Positions 30,818-41,017 of a DNA stretch of 42,656 bases are shown piece after piece. The position numbers and the translations under genes are program-made. Position 1 is the first letter of the stretch. Each line of letters starts with the position of its first letter. This DNA is from a virus (lineage: Duplodnaviria; Heunggongvirae; Uroviricota; Caudoviricetes): the IMG/VR virus record IMGVR_UViG_2718218168_000005, one strand, 5' to 3'. The notes under the pieces were generated by a model that saw only the letters and a list, made by a program, of their open reading frames with translations, did no database searches and had not been told where the DNA came from.

Positions 30818-32158
30818 TCAATCTTTTTTATCGGGATCAGGCTTCTTTTTAGGTAACTTCGGGGGCTTAACTTGCTGATGACTTTGCGTTCGGCGCGTAA
30901 GCCAGGGATGGTCAGCTTTAGGTTTAACATAGTATTTTGAGCGTAAATCAATACGGGCATTATCCACTCGTTCATGGACACTCTTTTCATCATCCAGTGG
31001 TATAGGCTCCGGGCCATCAACATACTTTTCCCAGCCCAGCGCTTTCCCGTCATACAGAACGTTAATTTCACCGTCAAAGTTCTCGCATACAGTAACAACC
31101 GAATGCCTAAGTCGATATCCCCGGCTCTCACTGCGTACCTGAAACGCACTGCTTTTGTACTGGAAAGTGAGATTTTTAGACAGAACGCGCTTCGCCTGTA
31201 GGCTGAAGATATAACCCAGTTCCTCTTCAGAATGGTGCACATCAAGATGAGCATTATCAGTAGTACGAGGCGACGTAGCGAACCGGTTGTTATAGGCTTC
31301 AATAAAGGTCGGCAACCATGCATTTGCTGTTTCAATATCACTGATATTCTGAAGCCGCATTTCTTTGACCAGCCTGTCCTGTAGTGTCTGATTGGCGCGC
31401 TCTACCCGCCCTTTTGCCTGCGGGCTGTTGGCATGGATTGGCTCGATGCCCAGTGTCTTTATCGCACGAGTGAACTGGGTCAGCTCACCTTCCCGCTCTG
31501 GGTTATTTACCCTGAATATACTGTGTCTATCAGAGTAGAGAGCGAGCGGTACGCCATGATCATTAAGGTAACCCCGGAGGGTTTCCATGTAAGCCCGGGT
31601 TGTTTCAGCAGGCACAAAACGCAACGCCATCAACGCACTGGTGGCATCATCAATGAAAACGATCAGTGTACATCTGGGGCCTCGATTTTCAAACCAGTCA
31701 TGAGGTGAGCCATCAATCTGGATCAGTTCACCGTAAGATGGTCGTCGCATGCGGCGTTGATATATACGGGCAATTTTACGACGGCGTTCACGCCATAACC
31801 CCTCTTCTATCATCCACTTTCTGAGAGTTTCAACGGATAAAGATAAACCGTGTATCTCGCGCAATTTTTCGCACGCAAACGTAGGTCCAAAATCAGCGTA
31901 ACGGCCTTTGAGGAGTGAAATTACTGTTGCTCTGAATTCAGTAGAAAAGGAATTATTAGGACGCTTTCCACGTCGGTGGGAAACCAGACCAGAAGGCCCT
32001 TCATTTCTATACCGTTGCACCAGACGTTTAACCTGCCGAATAGAAATGCCAATGCGTGCCGCAGCTTGTTCCTGAGTAATATGTCGATTAATTGACTCCT
32101 GAATAATCTGAAGTCGGTGGAGTTCCTTATGACTCATCGTAACAGTCTCTTTGATCAT
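30818..32158 (-). CDS. DDE transposase with rve (integrase core) domain and N-terminal HTH, IS481/IS1202-like (446 aa)
   Basis: Motifs IQIDGSPHDW, FIDDATS and ANSPQAKGRVERANQTLQ form a DDE triad; element boundaries not identified. Confidence 0.75.
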   Translation of the reverse strand: MIKETVTMSHKELHRLQIIQESINRHITQEQAAARIGISIRQVKRLVQRYRNEGPSGLVSHRRGKRPNNSFSTEFRATVISLLKGRYADFGPTFACEKLREIHGLSLSVETLRKWMIEEGLWRERRRKIARIYQRRMRRPSYGELIQIDGSPHDWFENRGPRCTLIVFIDDATSALMALRFVPAETTRAYMETLRGYLNDHGVPLALYSDRHSIFRVNNPEREGELTQFTRAIKTLGIEPIHANSPQAKGRVERANQTLQDRLVKEMRLQNISDIETANAWLPTFIEAYNNRFATSPRTTDNAHLDVHHSEEELGYIFSLQAKRVLSKNLTFQYKSSAFQVRSESRGYRLRHSVVTVCENFDGEINVLYDGKALGWEKYVDGPEPIPLDDEKSVHERVDNARIDLRSKYYVKPKADHPWLTRRTQSHQQVKPPKLPKKKPDPDKKD

Positions 32159-33213: not shown

Positions 33214-33823
33214 TCATCGCCCCACTCATCACAATATGCTTCGACCGGAGTTTTTCCCGCTTCATAGTCATCACGTTAGGATTCGACATCAGCAGCACTT
33301 CCACCGCGTAATTCACCATAGTCCATTAATAGTTCATCCCGCTCTTCAAAACTGATGTTATATTTAGCTGAACAAAAATCAGCCACTTTGTTCTTCCTCA
33401 TCGTCTTTTATTTCGTGGTATGAGTAATTGCAGTAGTTAAAGAAAATTTCTTATGCTCCGTCATGAATTTCATCAGGTGTTGCGTCATCGTCCACTTCGA
33501 ATACATCCTCAAAATCTCCACCAGCTATTTCCGTTTCAATAATAATTTTGAACTTTCGCATTTCACTACCGCCCTTTCGGGCGGCCTCCTGATGTTCTGA
33601 GGGTGCAGAAATCCATCCGGTTAAGGATTAAGTTTTATTTACAGAACTGAATTTAATTATTCAGATATACGTATCTGTAACCTTACGAATCTACTCACTG
33701 GATGCCTCTTTCATAAAAATAATCCAGTGGGTTTTATCGTTTTTTCCCTGTTCGTTGACAGATAACAGGCTTTCTATCTGTCAGTGCCAGAATCTGGCTT
33801 ACCGGTATTTGCGTTTCATTCCA

Positions 33824-34180
33824 TTAAAAAATCAGAACGCCGTGCGGCCTCAACACCCGAAAAGCTTCTTTAAATCTCTGTCGCAAATCATCACGCCAGG
33901 CATCTTTATTCAGCCGTCCATATTTCTTTCCCATCCAGGCGTTATCACCAACACGCTCAAGATGCGGAGGGTCTAATACAACCATCGAAAAAGATGCGTC
34001 TGCAAATGATAATGCACGAAAATCTGCGATAATGTCAGGGCTGATAATCAAGCGTCTCCCATTGCGTAATGTGTATCCTTCTTTTCTGATATCGCTGAAT
34101 ATCGCCCGTTTGTCAGACTTATCGAACCAGAACATGCGGCTGCCACAGCACATATCAAGAATGGTTGCCGGTGCACTCAC
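33824..34180 (-). CDS. SAM-dependent DNA methyltransferase fragment (118 aa; motif I-like and DPPH motif IV, no target-recognition domain)
   Basis: ILDMCCGSRMF (motif I-like) and VVLDPPH (motif IV-like); ORF stops at a T6 run and no extension exists in any frame. Confidence 0.5.
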   Translation of the reverse strand: MSAPATILDMCCGSRMFWFDKSDKRAIFSDIRKEGYTLRNGRRLIISPDIIADFRALSFADASFSMVVLDPPHLERVGDNAWMGKKYGRLNKDAWRDDLRQRFKEAFRVLRPHGVLIF

Positions 34181-34599
34181 TGCGCCACGTCCTGAAAATT
34201 ACCCTGATAGAAAGCCAGTATGCGCTGCATAACTTCGCTCTTCCGGCACTCGCGACAGATTATGTTTAGGCGACTGTCGTAGCGACGTATTTCTCCGTCA
34301 GGTGATGACCAGATAAGGTCCGGATCAACCATAGCAGGTTTCTTCACCTTTGCCCTCGAGAGTTTTTTGCGGGCGTTTTGCCAGTCCTTACGCGCCTGTT
34401 CAGAGGGGAATAACCCGTAGCCGGAGTTGTATACATCGCCACTGGCTACCAGCTCTCTGGCAAGAACGCTCATCAGATATCTAGTCGCACCTGTTTTAGC
34501 TTCCAGTTGCCGTAACGTCTCACGGCCGCTCTGGCGCACGAGTTCCACCACCTGCCATTTAATTTTTTCCCGCTCTTCTTGTGTAAAAACTTTTGCCAC
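34177..34599 (-). CDS. hypothetical protein (140 aa) downstream of the replication gene
   Basis: 4-nt overlap with the methyltransferase fragment start; basic central region, C-terminal CxxC; no family recognised. Confidence 0.5.
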   Translation of the reverse strand: MAKVFTQEEREKIKWQVVELVRQSGRETLRQLEAKTGATRYLMSVLARELVASGDVYNSGYGLFPSEQARKDWQNARKKLSRAKVKKPAMVDPDLIWSSPDGEIRRYDSRLNIICRECRKSEVMQRILAFYQGNFQDVAQ

Positions 34600-34639
34600 A
34601 AGTCCCCCTTAAAATTACCTCATGACCTGAAATCAACAC

Positions 34640-35605
34640 TTATCCTCTGAAACCAGGCGGAATTTCTGTATCCGGTTCAGAAATATGATTAACACAACGC
34701 TGTACAGGTGAACGTCCCAGGCGGATGACCAGTTCGTCCCATTTTTCGCGGAGCTTTGACGGGCTCATGATGTTTTTTACCCAGAATGGATCTCGCTGAA
34801 CCCGACCAAACATTTCGCAAATTTGTCTGTGGCTTCTGCCATCCAGCATCCGCATTGTGCGCACGTCATTGGCCCAGGCAGTCCAGTTAGGCTCTTTTGG
34901 TCGCATGATCTCGCCATCATCACTGGCTGCCTGTTCGTAGAGACCCACGATCCGCCCCCAGATCCACTGCGCACACGCCAAATCCTCCCTGCTACCCCAC
35001 TGGCGTTTTTTCGCACTAAACACAACCGCGTCGGAGTTCCGGGTTAAAGAATCCTGTTCAGTCGTCTGCGGGTCCGGTTGCGAAGCTTCCGGACGAAAAG
35101 TGTTTTTATTCTCTGTAGTAATCTCTGTTGTATTCTCTGTAAGATCATCAGGCCATTTTGACCCGATGACATTGGGTCGTTTTGAACCAATGGAGCGTTT
35201 CATTTTGACCTCTTCCATCGTGTCATTTTGACCTGATGGAGCGGCGCATTTTGAACCGATGGATTCGCTCAATTTGCCACCATCTAAAAGCTCGCTCCCA
35301 TAGTTGATCGTGTAGAAATTGGTCATATCGCGCTTTGATTTATTGAGCTTTTCACAACGCAAAAGCCCCAGCGTTTTCAGACTTGCAAACGCGCGCTTTA
35401 ACGTTGACTCTGACCAGAATGGGAACTGTTCCAGCCATTGTTCCGTTGTGTTATAAATCCAGCGAACACCATCACATTCCATGCCGGAGTTGGTATCTCT
35501 CAACCAGTAGTGCAGTTGTTGCAAAACAATGGCTTCGTTTAAGCCAATTTTCATTGCCAGCTGCGTGTTTATAACCAGTGGGCGTTCAGCAAAAAGAAGG
35601 CTCAT
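34640..35605 (-). CDS. Phage replication initiation protein, lambda O-like organisation (321 aa from MSLLFAERP; ORF-track start 35659)
   Basis: Position after cro/cII-like genes; iteron array lies inside the coding sequence; GGATGG upstream of the ATG at 35605. Confidence 0.6.
   Translation of the reverse strand: MSLLFAERPLVINTQLAMKIGLNEAIVLQQLHYWLRDTNSGMECDGVRWIYNTTEQWLEQFPFWSESTLKRAFASLKTLGLLRCEKLNKSKRDMTNFYTINYGSELLDGGKLSESIGSKCAAPSGQNDTMEEVKMKRSIGSKRPNVIGSKWPDDLTENTTEITTENKNTFRPEASQPDPQTTEQDSLTRNSDAVVFSAKKRQWGSREDLACAQWIWGRIVGLYEQAASDDGEIMRPKEPNWTAWANDVRTMRMLDGRSHRQICEMFGRVQRDPFWVKNIMSPSKLREKWDELVIRLGRSPVQRCVNHISEPDTEIPPGFRG
35154..35284. repeat. Iteron array (5 to 6 copies of CATTTTGA(C/A)C(C/T)GATGG at about 23-bp spacing) plus adjacent TCTCTGT repeats: putative replication origin
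   Basis: Repeats start at 35154, 35179, 35201, 35224, 35247 and 35270; TCTCTGT x3 at 35110..35140. Confidence 0.7.
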
Positions 35606-36107
35606 AATTCCATCCAGCTTTTTGTTGGTATTGCTGTCGATACGCAAGCTTGAAAGCAATTGCTTTTTCTATAAGTTCGTCAGTTTCACGATCCACTACG
35701 GCAGGATCAGCAAAAAGCAGTCCGGACTCCACCACATCGCCATATTCTTTGTTTAACCCGGCGATCATGCACGTGATGCTTTTTCCGTCAGTAATTTCAC
35801 GATACAACCTGAAATCACTAATCCGGATAGCCTCCATAATCGCAGGCACTAGCGCCGTGAACTTTTCACGCTTATCCCTGGTGTCGATAGCCTTCCAGCG
35901 TTCGAATATCTTCACTCGATTAACACCAAGCGCTCGCTGATCAACCGCGCCACCTTCATCTGTGACACGCTGAACATCGATGTTCGGGCGCTCTTTCAAA
36001 GCCCAGAATGCTTCAGTGATTAATATCGTCGCCTGCTCCTGTGTCATTCCTGGTCGACATATCCAGGCATCCAGAGCCTCACGAGCCTGTTCAGGAGTGA
36101 TTTTCAT
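35586..36107 (-). CDS. hypothetical protein at the cII position, possibly YdaT-like regulator (173 aa)
   Basis: Directly downstream of the cro-like dicC with 17-nt overlap; YdaT-likeness is from weak recalled similarity only. Confidence 0.45.
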   Translation of the reverse strand: MKITPEQAREALDAWICRPGMTQEQATILITEAFWALKERPNIDVQRVTDEGGAVDQRALGVNRVKIFERWKAIDTRDKREKFTALVPAIMEAIRISDFRLYREITDGKSITCMIAGLNKEYGDVVESGLLFADPAVVDRETDELIEKAIAFKLAYRQQYQQKAGWNYEPSFC

Positions 36108-36318
36108 TGTTCAACCGCCCCGCCCGCTTCGTCTTACGATATTCATCATAAACTTTGGGATCATACTGAAGCTCCCCGCCAGATGCCTCCTGTAGACGCA
36201 TCGCGCGACCTTCAGGAACCAGTATCCCCCAAGCAGCAACACTTGCCAGCCTCACTCCTGCGGCATTGGCAAGCTTTGTTTTGCTGCCAAAAAAAGTAAT
36301 TGCGTCAACTTTAAGCAT
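36091..36318 (-). CDS. dicC: DicC, Cro-like regulator (75 aa from MLKVDAITFFG)
   Basis: Matches recalled DicC; GAGGGGGG SD upstream of the ATG at 36318; divergent from dicA. Confidence 0.85.
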   Translation of the reverse strand: MLKVDAITFFGSKTKLANAAGVRLASVAAWGILVPEGRAMRLQEASGGELQYDPKVYDEYRKTKRAGRLNNENHS

Positions 36319-36332
36319 CAAAGCCCCCCTCT

Positions 36333-36350
36333 TGTTAGACTTTTCTAACA
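36333..36350. promoter_or_regulatory. Operator palindrome TGTTAGA-N4-TCTAACA in the dicC/dicA intergenic region
   Basis: Perfect 7-bp inverted repeat with 4-bp spacer just upstream of the dicC start. Confidence 0.6.
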
Positions 36351-36399
36351 TTATTGTGCGCGGGATACCTAAGTCAAGAAAAATTAGAATTACCTAACT

Positions 36400-36807
36400 A
36401 TGGATACAAGAACCCTGGGCCAGCGAGTTCTGGCGCGACGAAAAGAATTACGCTTAACACAACGAGAAGCCGCGCGCCTCGCTGGAGTTGCTCACGTCAC
36501 AATTTCACAATGGGAAAGAGACGAAACCCAGCCAGTCGGAAAACGATTGTTTGCTTTAGCGGATGCTCTGAAGTGCTCACCTACATGGCTAATGTTTGGT
36601 GACGAAGACAAGGCACCAGTGCCTGCACAAGAACTTCATGTGGAAACAGAGCTAACTCCCAACCACAAAGAATTGATCGAATTATTCGATGCTCTTCCAT
36701 CTTCCGAGCAGGAAGCCTTGCTGTCTGAAATGCGCGCAAGAGTAGAAAACTTCAACAAACTCTTCGAAGAAATGCTTAAAGCGCGTAAAAATAAATCAAT
36801 AAAATAA
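36400..36807 (+). CDS. dicA: DicA, CI-like HTH repressor (135 aa)
   Basis: Matches recalled DicA (MDTRTLGQRVLARRKELRLTQREAARLAGVAHVTISQWERDETQP...). Confidence 0.92.
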   Translation: MDTRTLGQRVLARRKELRLTQREAARLAGVAHVTISQWERDETQPVGKRLFALADALKCSPTWLMFGDEDKAPVPAQELHVETELTPNHKELIELFDALPSSEQEALLSEMRARVENFNKLFEEMLKARKNKSIK

Positions 36808-38453: not shown

Positions 38454-38545
38454 AACAGTTCCGTAATAAATATCCGGTTTCATTCTTATATGCCAGCAAT
38501 GGCAGGGATTTGTTCATCCTTAAATCTGTCATGAGGTTAAAACAA

Positions 38546-41017
38546 ATGAGTAAAGTCTTTATTTGCGCCGCTATTCCTGACGAACTGGCAACAAGGGAAG
38601 AAGGCGCTGTGGCTGTAGCCACAGCCATTGAAGCTGGCGACGAACGCCGTGCTCGAGCAAAATTTCACTGGCAATTCCTGGAACATTATCCGGCTGCTCA
38701 GGACTGCGCTTATAAATTTATTGTCTGCGAGGATAAACCTGGCATACCCCGCCCTGCCCTCGATTCATGGGATGCTGAATATATGCAGGAAAACCGCTGG
38801 GATGAGGAGTCTGCTTCTTTTGTCCCGGTTGAGACTGAATCCGATCCGATGAACGTCACTTTTGACAAGCTGGCCCCTGAAGTACAGAACGCTGTCATGG
38901 TTAAGTTCGACACATGTGAAAACATCACCGTTGATATGGTTATTAGCGCACAGGAATTGTTGCAGGAAGACATGGCAACATTCGACGGACATATCGTTGA
39001 AGCGTTGATGAAAATGCCAGAAGTTAACGCCATGTATCCGGAGCTTAAGTTGCACGCCATTGGGTGGGTTAAGCATAAATGTATTCCTGGTGCTAAATGG
39101 CCCGAAATTCAGGCAGAGATGCGCATCTGGAAAAAACGTCGCGAAGGTGAACGCAAGGAAACCGGAAAATACACGTCTGTTGTTGATCTCGCCCGCGCCA
39201 GAGCCAATCAACAGTACACTGAAAATTCAACAGGAAAAATCAGCCCGGTCATTGCTGCCATTCATCGCGAATACAAGCAGACATGGAAAACACTGGATGA
39301 CGAACTGGCCTACGCTCTCTGGCCTGGTGATGTGGATGCCGGAAACATTGACGGCAGCATCCATCGCTGGGCAAAAAAAGAAGTTATCGACAACGACCGC
39401 GAAGACTGGAAGCGTATCTCGGCATCAATGCGCAAACAGCCTGATGCCCTTCGCTACGACCGCCAAACTATTTTTGGCCTTGTCCGTGAGCGTCCGATCG
39501 ACATTCACAAAGATCCCGTAGCACTGAACAAATATATCTGCGAATACCTGACGACAAAGGGCGTGTTTGAGAATGAAGAAACAGACCTGGGCACTGTTGA
39601 TGTTCTCCAGTCATCAGAAACACAAACTGATGCAGTGGAAACTGAGGTATCTGATATCCCAAAAAATGAAACCGCGCCGGAAGCTGAACCATCTGTAGAG
39701 CGTGAGGGGCCGTTCTATTTCCTCTTCGCAGATAAGGACGGAGAAAAATACGGTCGCGCAAACAAACTCTCTGGTCTGGATAAGGCACTGGCTGCTGGCG
39801 CCACTGAAATCACAAAAGAAGAATATTTTGCCCGAAAAAATGGCACATACACGGGCTTACCGCAAAATGTAGATACCGCTGAAGATTCAGAACAACCAGA
39901 GCCGATAAAAGTTACCGCTGACGAAGTAAACAAAATTATGCAGGCAGCCAATATCAGCCAGCCTGACGCCGATAAGTTGCTTGCTGCATCACGTGGTGAA
40001 TTTGTTGAAGGGATTAGTGACCCGAATGATCCGAAATGGGTTAAGGGGCTCCAGACCCGCGATTCTGTGAACCAGAACCAGCATGAATCGGAACGGAACT
40101 ACCAAAAAGCGGAACAAAACAGTCCAAATGCGTTACAAAACGAGCCAGAAACGAAACAGCCTGAACCAGTAGCGCAACAGGAAGTGGAAAAAGTCTGCAC
40201 CGCCTGCGGTCAGACCGGCGGCGGCAACTGCCCTGATTGTGGCGCGGTGATGGGCGACGCAACATACCAAGAAACATTCGATGAAGAGTATCAGGTTGAA
40301 GTTCAGGAAGATGATCCGGAGGAAATGGAAGGCGCTGAACATCCACACAAGGAGAACACTGGCGGCAATCAGCATCACAATAGCGATAATGAAACTGGCG
40401 AGACGGCAGATCACCCAATTAAGGTGAACGGTCATCACGAAATCACATCCACCAGCAGGACGTGTGACCATCTAATGATCGACCTTGAAACCATGGGAAA
40501 AAATCCTGATGCCCCGATCATCTCAATAGGTGCAATATTTTTCGATCCGCAAACCGGAGATATGGGACCGGAATTTAGTAAGACTATCGATCTGGAAACT
40601 GCTGGCGGAGTCATTGATCGGGACACCATTAAATGGTGGCTTAAGCAATCACGCGAAGCGCAATCTGCCATTATGACCGATGAAATCCCGTTAGATGATG
40701 CACTGTTACAATTGCGAGAATTTATCGACGAAAACTCCGGTGAATTTTTTGTTCAGGTTTGGGGAAATGGAGCCAACTTCGACAACACGATTTTGCGCCG
40801 TTCATACGAACGGCAGGGGATCCCCTGCCCGTGGCGTTACTACAACGATCGCGATGTACGCACAATCGTTGAGCTGGGGAAAGCCATAGACTTCGATGCC
40901 AGAACGGCTATTCCATTCGAAGGTGAGCGCCATAATGCACTTGATGACGCCCGTTACCAGGCAAAATACGTTTCAGTTATCTGGCAAAAACTGATCCCGA
41001 GTCAGGCTGATTCTTAA
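38546..41017 (+). CDS. ydfE: Large prophage protein (823 aa): N-terminal domain of unknown function, CxxC-x10-CxxC zinc ribbon, C-terminal DEDDh (DnaQ-like) 3'-5' exonuclease domain; intact counterpart of the K-12 ydfE fragment
   Basis: Exo motifs DLET (I), WGNGANFD (II), HNALDDARY (III); GAGG upstream of the ATG at 38546; the ORF-track frame begins at a TTG at 38510. Confidence 0.8.
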   Translation: MSKVFICAAIPDELATREEGAVAVATAIEAGDERRARAKFHWQFLEHYPAAQDCAYKFIVCEDKPGIPRPALDSWDAEYMQENRWDEESASFVPVETESDPMNVTFDKLAPEVQNAVMVKFDTCENITVDMVISAQELLQEDMATFDGHIVEALMKMPEVNAMYPELKLHAIGWVKHKCIPGAKWPEIQAEMRIWKKRREGERKETGKYTSVVDLARARANQQYTENSTGKISPVIAAIHREYKQTWKTLDDELAYALWPGDVDAGNIDGSIHRWAKKEVIDNDREDWKRISASMRKQPDALRYDRQTIFGLVRERPIDIHKDPVALNKYICEYLTTKGVFENEETDLGTVDVLQSSETQTDAVETEVSDIPKNETAPEAEPSVEREGPFYFLFADKDGEKYGRANKLSGLDKALAAGATEITKEEYFARKNGTYTGLPQNVDTAEDSEQPEPIKVTADEVNKIMQAANISQPDADKLLAASRGEFVEGISDPNDPKWVKGLQTRDSVNQNQHESERNYQKAEQNSPNALQNEPETKQPEPVAQQEVEKVCTACGQTGGGNCPDCGAVMGDATYQETFDEEYQVEVQEDDPEEMEGAEHPHKENTGGNQHHNSDNETGETADHPIKVNGHHEITSTSRTCDHLMIDLETMGKNPDAPIISIGAIFFDPQTGDMGPEFSKTIDLETAGGVIDRDTIKWWLKQSREAQSAIMTDEIPLDDALLQLREFIDENSGEFFVQVWGNGANFDNTILRRSYERQGIPCPWRYYNDRDVRTIVELGKAIDFDARTAIPFEGERHNALDDARYQAKYVSVIWQKLIPSQADS

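Follow-up and report, generated by a model that had tools for sequence, protein, structure and literature searches.

The origin of phage lambda lies inside the gene of its own initiator, O. Its iterons (ATCCCTCAAAACGAGGGA) occupy nucleotides (nt) 348-432 of the 900-nt gene and are followed by an AT-rich tract; the protein ends in DWIYGVDL, and lambda also carries a P gene. RepA_N initiators likewise bind iterons inside their own gene. A further class of lambdoid phages has O only; it accounts for 34 of 314 lambdoid phages from Enterobacteriales, counts plaque-forming LLS among its members, and has a mode of replication that "is not yet understood" (PMC12315714). Here we describe a module of this kind in the IMG/VR virus record IMGVR_UViG_2718218168_000005, a stretch of 42,656 nt referred to below as the window, which is a Qin-type lambdoid prophage of Escherichia coli. 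The gene of its O-like replication initiator, a protein of 321 amino acids (aa), contains an array of iterons and an AT-rich tract (Table 1). We consider it likely that these form the vegetative origin of the prophage, built like ori-lambda, and that they belong to a complete O-only module; the C-terminal tail of the initiator may mediate loading.

The array spans positions 35146-35284 and consists of six units phased at 23 base pairs (bp), four strong and two degenerate, as found with find_repeats and Tandem Repeats Finder (TRF; period 23, 3.7 copies, score 70). A sequence-only reading of the window had placed five to six copies of a repeat here, spaced at about 23 bp inside the 321-aa gene. 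Their location and period are borne out, as are four good copies, while the remaining two are half-degenerate. The strong units (iterons 1, 2, 4 and 5) are spaced at 24, 46 and 23 bp and share the partly palindromic consensus CATCrGGTCAAAATGrCmyGATG, in which 7-bp inverted arms (CATCrGG / CCyGATG) flank the asymmetric core TCAAAATG. Iterons 3 and 6 stand in the same register. A 16-mer allowing up to three mismatches matches all four strong units with 0-2 mismatches within 110 bp (35154, 35178, 35224 and 35247). Elsewhere in the 42.6 kilobases (kb) it has two matches, each with three mismatches, and 1.69 matches are expected in the whole window. The 23-mer consensus has two exact matches, against none in 100 shuffles. 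This clustering exceeds the chance expectation, but both patterns were derived from this same sequence, and conservation in relatives is therefore the stronger test.

The AT-rich tract (G+C 0.325) follows iteron 1 on the coding strand, where three 12-mers and an AAAACAC run extend from 35142 to 35100. The 12-bp repeat occurs three times at 35107-35142 (TRF period 12, 2.7 copies) and corresponds to the threefold TCTCTGT tract seen in the sequence-only reading. The iterons make up nt 322-460 and the tract nt 464-499 of the 966-nt gene, and both fall in the stretch that encodes a linker predicted to be disordered. The initiator open reading frame (ORF) thus holds at least four partly palindromic repeats about two helical turns apart, with an AT-rich segment directly downstream of them in the direction of transcription.

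The resemblance to the lambda origin, already proposed from the sequence, extends to the position and order of these elements. In both, the central part of the initiator gene holds dyad iterons with a TCAAAAyG core, spaced at 20-24 bp, and the AT-rich tract lies on the promoter-distal side; iterons and tract together occupy nt 322-499 in the window. The initiator's C-terminal domain is homologous, and the gene order cro-cII-O stands behind a pR-like promoter. The differences are in the details of the DNA and in the loading functions. The central TCAAAAyG and the dyad layout are common to both sets of iterons, whereas the arms are not (CATCrGG in the window, TCCCTC in lambda); there are six phased units rather than four, and the AT-rich tract is a 12-mer triplet, unlike that of lambda. 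Where lambda has a P gene and an O protein ending in ...DWIYGVDL, the window has no P gene and a DnaT-like tail. Given the homologous C-terminal domain, the same order and position and the central TCAAAAyG with its dyad layout, the comparison makes it well supported that the locus would work like ori-lambda.

Table 1. Features of the replication module and of the adjoining genes, by position in the 42,656-nt window.
Feature	Position	Strand	Basis
O-like replication initiator gene, 321 aa	34640..35605	-	ATG at 35605; PHROG 391 "replication initiation O-like", E=6e-91
N-terminal winged-helix domain, residues ~9-108, presumed iteron-binding	35282..35581	-	AlphaFold2 (AF2) helices and beta-hairpin, predicted local distance difference test (pLDDT) 64-85
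Lambda-O-type C-terminal helical domain, residues ~195-296	34718..35023	-	BLASTP against lambda O; AF2 helices 206-295
DnaT-like C-terminal tail, residues 302-321, QRCVNHISEPDTEIPPGFRG	34643..34702	-	14/20 identical to E. coli DnaT 160-179
Iteron 1, adjoining the AT-rich tract, CATCGGGTCAAAATGGCCTGATG	35146..35168	-	7-bp inverted arms around TCAAAATG
Iteron 2, CATTGGTTCAAAACGACCCAATG	35170..35192	-	repeat search, 16-mer match
Iteron 3, degenerate half-site, GAAGAGGTCAAAATGAAACGCTC	35193..35215	-	GGTCAAA(A/G)TG kept in relatives
Iteron 4, CATCAGGTCAAAATGACACGATG	35216..35238	-	repeat search, 16-mer and 23-mer matches
Iteron 5, CATCGGTTCAAAATGCGCCGCTC	35239..35261	-	left arm and core intact
Iteron 6, weakest, GATGGTGGCAAATTGAGCGAATC	35262..35284	-	23-bp register; reads GAGGTCAAAGTG in relatives
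AT-rich tract, presumed unwinding element	35100..35145	.	three 12-mers (TTACAGAGAATA / CAACAGAGATTA / CTACAGAGAATA) and AAAACAC
cI-like (DicA-like) repressor	36400..36807	+	Pfam HTH_3, E=1.5e-14; PHROG transcriptional repressor families
Predicted pR-like promoter, TTGACT-16-AATAAT	36350..36377	-	consensus scan, 10/12 matches, pattern match only
Cro-like (DicC) gene	36091..36351	-	Pfam P22_Cro, E=7e-12; RefSeq annotation DicC
cII-like/YdaT-family gene, 173 aa	35586..36107	-	PHROG 163, E=2.6e-40; Pfam YdaT_toxin
DUF977/"Ren-like exclusion"/LygF gene, 140 aa	34177..34599	-	Pfam DUF977, E=5.5e-29; PHROG 142, E=1.7e-47
Truncated S-adenosylmethionine-dependent DNA methyltransferase pseudogene, 118 aa	33824..34180	-	PHROG 954, positions 52-165 of 229

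Conservation among relatives indicates at which level the repeats are maintained. The six units begin in codon phases 1, 3, 2, 1, 3 and 3 and encode the peptides DGGKLSES, SIGSKCAAP, PSGQNDTM, EEVKMKRS, SIGSKRPNV and VIGSKWPDD. Ten genes with the same N-domain (protein identity 46-73%) were aligned by codon position. Their pairwise identity at third codon positions is 0.37-0.59 in the part encoding the N-domain, rises to 0.69-0.85 in gene nt 361-510, which cover iterons and 12-mers, and is 0.2-0.35 after nt 540, where differing C-terminal modules join. AlphaFold predicts residues 109-203 of the initiator to be disordered, and since the linker is predicted to be disordered, protein structure does not explain the conservation of the repeats. 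On these comparisons, the constraint is on the DNA and not on the protein. The abrupt loss of identity near gene nt 540 (~35065), just past the AT-rich tract, marks a mosaic joint. The N-domain and the origin would appear to travel as one module, and the C-terminal domain and tail as another.

Which part of the initiator reads the iterons is suggested by their distribution. A scan of one genome per species returned 26 loci, 21 of which are enterobacterial loci with relatives of O. Those with the same N-domain as the window (L009, L010, L011 and L014-L018) all carry CATCrGGTCAAAATG..GATG at 23 bp together with the 12-mer, in three to five copies. The C-terminal half is of either the lambda-O or the Phg_2220_C family, which are unrelated, and the tails differ; three different C-terminal types occur with this N-domain. 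Loci that combine the window-type C-domain with another N-domain have iterons GTCAAAATCTGACCC at 15 bp (L019-L021) or CCGCAAAC..AGAATGCGG at 23 bp (L012). In mEp460_4F5, whose O protein is 68% identical, the 24/46/23 spacing is exact and the 12-mer triplet is identical. As the iteron type follows the N-domain and not the C-domain, the N-domain is expected to be the reader of the iterons. Iteron sequence tracks the initiator N-domain in lambda and its relatives as well. A phage origin whose iterons would be read by the N-domain is, judged by this pattern, highly probable.

Some of the scanned loci differ in other respects. The Edwardsiella piscicida locus (L010) shares N-domain and iterons with the window, carries the 12-mer five times and has a C-domain of the lambda-O type, and its initiator ends in a long, different C-terminal extension. 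In Shigella flexneri (CP182557.1, L013), the O gene is decayed and split into ORFs of 71 and 192 aa, with the break inside the iteron region. Loci on contigs of metagenome-assembled genomes assigned to Bacillota, Veillonella parvula and Collinsella (L006, L008 and L025) carry the O gene of this E. coli prophage at 96-100% identity and probably reflect binning contamination.

The initiator itself is a composite protein. Its membership of a replication family, as proposed earlier, holds by PHROG 391; PHROGs alone gave a family, and searches of Pfam and NCBIfam returned none for the 321-aa protein. RefSeq labels it "phage replication protein O" or "hypothetical", and an in-frame TTG upstream, at 35659, would extend it to 339 aa. 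By BLASTP, residues 147-294 align with lambda O residues 135-270 (34% identity, E=5e-26), and no other part is aligned. The alignment starts in the last iteron, crosses the linker encoded by the AT-rich tract and enters the C-terminal domain; tblastn places the match at 34724-35167. An alignment of this C-domain (A2) has 28 invariant columns. The N-domain, in contrast, has no PF04492 (Phage_rep_O) match and no Pfam match at E<0.02, and it is not detectably lambda-O-like by sequence. The lambda-O likeness noted in the sequence-only reading is thus retained for the C-terminal domain and not for the N-domain, and membership of the O family is, by these alignments, a property of the C-terminal domain only.

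Structure prediction adds to this in part. The AF2 model was built from a shallow alignment of 17 sequences at least 69% identical and has an overall pLDDT of 54. With Foldseek, the N-domain gives weak matches to RepA_N initiators (4PQL, 5KBJ and 4PT7) and to DnaD-N (2V79), with E values of about 0.02-0.2. The RepA_N initiators, such as pSK41/pTZ2162 RepA (4PQL, 5KBJ), and DnaD-N are the best fold matches of the N-domain, but at E 0.02-0.2 and pLDDT 54 they are weak, sequence similarity is absent, and host range and C-terminal domains differ. Foldseek returned nothing for the C-terminal domain, and with a pLDDT of 54 we do not claim a fold relation between the lambda-O-type domain and the DnaT bundle. 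A phmmer search against the PDB gave a spurious match to YteR; the other match was to the DnaT tail.

No gene for a helicase loader was found. Neither E. coli DnaC nor any of three P types, that of lambda among them, has a tblastn match at E<0.1 anywhere in the window, in line with the earlier observation that no P- or DnaC-like gene follows O. There is no P-type loader gene directly downstream of O; the DUF977 gene is found there. The two genes after O had been read as a 140-aa unknown and a methyltransferase fragment; the fragment is confirmed, and the unknown is DUF977/Ren-like by Pfam and PHROG. The same O-only layout occurs in the phage genomes HannyBb (from bird faeces), mEp460_ev081, mEp460_4F5 and PhiR42_1, and the order O-DUF977-methyltransferase without a loader is identical in deposited phage genomes. 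The plaque-forming phage LLS has an O homologue only (PMC12315714). As in the window, LLS and mEp460_4F5 carry a single iteron-bearing O-family gene, then non-replication genes, and no helicase or loader. The O protein of LLS differs in having an HTH_36-type N-domain, a Phg_2220_C-type C-domain and iterons of the TCAAAATCTGA type at 15 bp. The module had been called either unconventional or incomplete. Unconventional it is; incompleteness does not agree with the same layout in phage genomes that include plaque-forming LLS. By its genes, the window module would fit the O-only lambdoid class, and we hold with high confidence that it is complete and encodes no P, DnaC or DnaB.

In place of the lambda O C-terminus, the initiator ends in a sequence resembling that of host DnaT. 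The tail reads RDVN.VSEPD..IPPGFRG and is 70% identical to residues 160-179 of E. coli DnaT (pairwise E=9e-8). The likeness appears in four independent comparisons. Beside the pairwise one, it is detected by tblastn (E=1e-5); the PDB DnaT chains 2RU8, 6AEP and 9ZBT align to the initiator at 301-321 only; and positions 160-179 of the NCBIfam DnaT model match, with 16.3 bits against a cut-off of 201 for the full-length equivalog. The window initiator has no match to PF17948, the three-helix DNA-binding domain of DnaT. It differs from DnaT in lacking both this domain and the DnaT N-terminal domain, and it is predicted to be an origin-specific initiator rather than a restart factor. The tail region is disordered in the AF2 model. 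The mEp460 homologues already carry the annotation "Primosomal protein I" (RAST-style annotation).

The type of tail goes together with the type of loader. Among the 21 enterobacterial loci, initiators ending in (I/V)PxGFRG, GFRS (L016) or GFRT (L014) are never followed by P, with C-domains of either family, while four loci with other tails have P, as does lambda. Here the tails HWNSPEAWENTL, DWAEGLQI and the lambda DWIYGVDL stand upstream of P homologues that are 39-46% identical to lambda P. In LLS, O ends in ...VDTKIPEGFRG. A scan of viral contigs for IP[PA]GFRG followed by a stop codon gave 50 stretches, about 40 of them at the end of initiator-like proteins, 230-352 aa long. Their N-termini are of at least nine kinds, among them HTH_36 and DUF1376, and their C-terminal parts of at least four families; in one of the latter the DnaT DNA-binding domain is complete (PF17948, E=4e-18; 63% identity to DnaT 80-173). 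The genes that follow these initiators encode small winged helix-turn-helix (wHTH)/PerC-like or DUF977-like proteins, methyltransferases or, in two cases, DnaC homologues; none encodes P. One initiator, from IMGVR_UViG_2084038018_000006 (L122), carries the DnaT-like tail twice in tandem (...RDINQLPGPDKQIPAGFRGARQERDINQISEPDSTIPPGFRG).

A search with a DnaC alignment gave 80 viral loci, and in 79 of the 79 with an upstream ORF the tail ...PD..IP.GF(R/T)G ends the protein encoded just before the DnaC-like gene. The initiators at these loci have at least 12 N-terminal types, although each set of loci consists of the best matches to one query and is phylogenetically non-independent. At lambda-P loci, O ends in DWIYGV(D/E)L in 72 of 72, with three N-terminal types; this control has low diversity, as only lambda-P-like loci, at 98-100% identity, were returned. 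The search with the A2 C-domain alignment returned only loci at least 92% identical and was of no use for diversity. The tail RD[VI]N..S.PD..IP.GF[RT]G ends many unrelated phage initiators (L111-L160 and L163-L242). In the loci sampled, it behaves like a portable module that matches the type of loader. On the most parsimonious reading, tail-bearing initiators would use a DnaC-type loader, their own or that of the host. Tail-bearing phage initiators stand directly upstream of DnaC homologues as dnaT does of dnaC, and the comparison suggests that the host dnaT-dnaC pair derives from a phage initiator-loader pair.

We propose the following sequence of events. Dimers of the N-domain would bind the partly palindromic iterons to form an O-some-like complex. 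This complex, helped by pR-type transcription through the gene, would open the AT-rich 12-mers. The DnaT-like tail would then recruit host DnaB-DnaC, or the step normally served by DnaT, to the opened origin, and in doing so would replace the lambda O-P contact. This last step, recruitment of host DnaB-DnaC through the tail, we put forward from the pairing of tail and loader type, at slightly less than even odds.

Several points weigh against this account, beside the self-derived repeat patterns and the non-independent locus sets mentioned above. None of the O-only phages has been studied (PMC12315714). The AF2 model is of low confidence (pLDDT 54), and its fold matches are weak. The Edwardsiella piscicida locus has neither the tail nor P, and a third way of loading may operate there. 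The O-like DopC has a DnaT C-terminal motif and yet a P-like partner, DopE (PMC5509034); a DnaT-like C-terminus thus does not strictly exclude P. This domesticated O/P-like pair of Cellvibrionales shares the motif with the window initiator, but DopC has no iterons and a P-like partner, whereas the window has iterons and no P. The preprimosome structure of a 2026 paper docks the C-terminal domain of DnaT on PriA, and the same paper speculates that it is the N-terminal domain of DnaT that recruits DnaB/DnaC. Truncation of DnaT residues 154-179 lowers the cooperativity of binding to single-stranded DNA. In the DnaT literature searched, the role of residues 160-179 is not defined.

The docking on PriA also favors the main alternative, in which the tail connects the initiator to the restart primosome of PriA and PriB and DnaB is loaded by the restart pathway. 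It would agree with the presence of the whole DnaT DNA-binding domain (PF17948) in some tail-bearing phage initiators and with the dependence of LLS-type phages on host recombination functions (PMC12315714). The tight linkage of the tail to an adjacent phage DnaC homologue (79/79), however, points to the loader and not to PriA. The window protein, moreover, has only the tail and not the DnaT helical bundle, and no residue-level role of the tail is given in the DnaT literature searched. We regard loading through the restart primosome as unlikely. PMC12315714 does not mention the DnaT tail, PriA, the primosome or DnaB.

A second alternative places the loading function in the DUF977 protein, or in wHTH/PerC-like analogues, as an unrecognised loader or adaptor replacing P. 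The DUF977 gene directly follows O in the window, and small wHTH proteins (130-165 aa) follow many tail-bearing initiators, but no such gene follows O in LLS, L014, L016, L111 or L126, and L146 has both a DUF977-like gene and a DnaC homologue. A Pfam search found no ATPase or P-like features in the protein. Its C-terminus is Ren-like (the last 20 aa are 50% identical to lambda Ren), and the gene occupies the position of lambda ren, a gene that lambda does not need for replication. Several other O-only modules lack the DUF977 gene. This explanation is improbable, and the gene is probably an accessory at the ren position, outside the replication machinery, and not a loader.

It would also be conceivable that the module is incomplete, having lost a P- or DnaC-type loader by decay, and that the origin is a fossil. 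The adjacent methyltransferase pseudogene, the nearby IS1202-like transposase and the broken O gene of the Shigella locus would fit such decay. The O ORF of the window, however, is intact and 100% conserved in many genomes, the loader-less gene order is identical in deposited phage genomes, O-only phages are a recognised class that includes plaque-forming LLS, and tail-bearing initiators never precede P in the loci sampled. A fossil origin is thus very improbable. That the periodicity is a repeat or low-complexity linker of the protein, with no function in the DNA, is scarcely credible, for although the peptide IGSK occurs three times in the linker, the 23-bp period is not a multiple of three and the units lie in all three phases, synonymous positions show higher conservation than those of the structured domain, the type of repeat goes with the DNA-binding domain, and the linker is predicted to be disordered.

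The module lies in a typical prophage setting. Many E. coli chromosomes match a stretch of 2.6 kb (33800-36400) at 100% identity; some match to it occurs in 4625 of 5426 complete E. coli genomes, and at least 80% of it in 741. In a matching chromosome, the module is flanked on one side by dicC, a dicA-like repressor, ydfABC, dicB, a 3'-5' exonuclease, xis and int, and on the other by relBE, hokD, rem, Q, lysis genes, terminase, portal and capsid. The early-right operon on the minus strand runs from the pR-like promoter through the Cro-like gene, the cII/YdaT-like gene, the initiator and DUF977 to the truncated methyltransferase, and from the promoter at 36350-36377, transcription of cro, cII and O would run across the origin. 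The cII/YdaT-like gene overlaps the start of O by 20 nt, and database entries of 448 aa (P0001, P0002 and P0004) in which the YdaT/cII-like and O ORFs are fused are probably frameshifts or annotation artefacts. RefSeq labels the methyltransferase at 33824-34180 "frameshifted; internal stop", and an intact 446-aa IS1202-like (ISEsa1-family) transposase lies at 30818-32158 within the nin-like region. Because of this insertion and the truncated, frameshifted methyltransferase, the prophage copy is seen as partly decayed, with its replication module intact. In the early-left operon, an 835-aa ORF at 38510-41017 stands beside dicB/ydfD homologues; in other annotations it bears the label 3'-5' exonuclease ("exodeoxyribonuclease of cryptic prophage CP-933P").

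As a feature of lambdoid phages, the origin itself is ordinary. The O-only class is already in the literature (PMC12315714), as is, since 2017, the link between an O-like protein and the DnaT C-terminal motif in DopC (PMC5509034). In the literature searched, we did not find any mention that O-only lambdoid initiators carry the tail, that it is spread as a module, or that it goes one-to-one with loaders of the DnaC type rather than the P type; drawn from sequence comparison, these points form a testable hypothesis and not a result. More tentatively, we postulate that the tail of about 20 residues shared by DnaT and phage initiators is a portable peptide that recruits a DnaC-type loader or DnaB-DnaC. 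O-only phages would then use mimicry to load host DnaB by way of host DnaC, DnaT itself would hand the preprimosome to DnaB-DnaC through this very peptide, and host dnaT-dnaC would stem from a module of phage initiator and loader. Of greater consequence than the origin is the missing loader, as about one lambdoid phage in nine is O-only and the replication of these phages is not understood (PMC12315714), and the module is widespread, at least 80% of it being present in 741 among 5426 complete E. coli genomes. The 2026 preprimosome paper calls the way in which DnaT recruits DnaB-DnaC unknown; as the same tail is found on host DnaT, the comparison with phages names a candidate element for this step.

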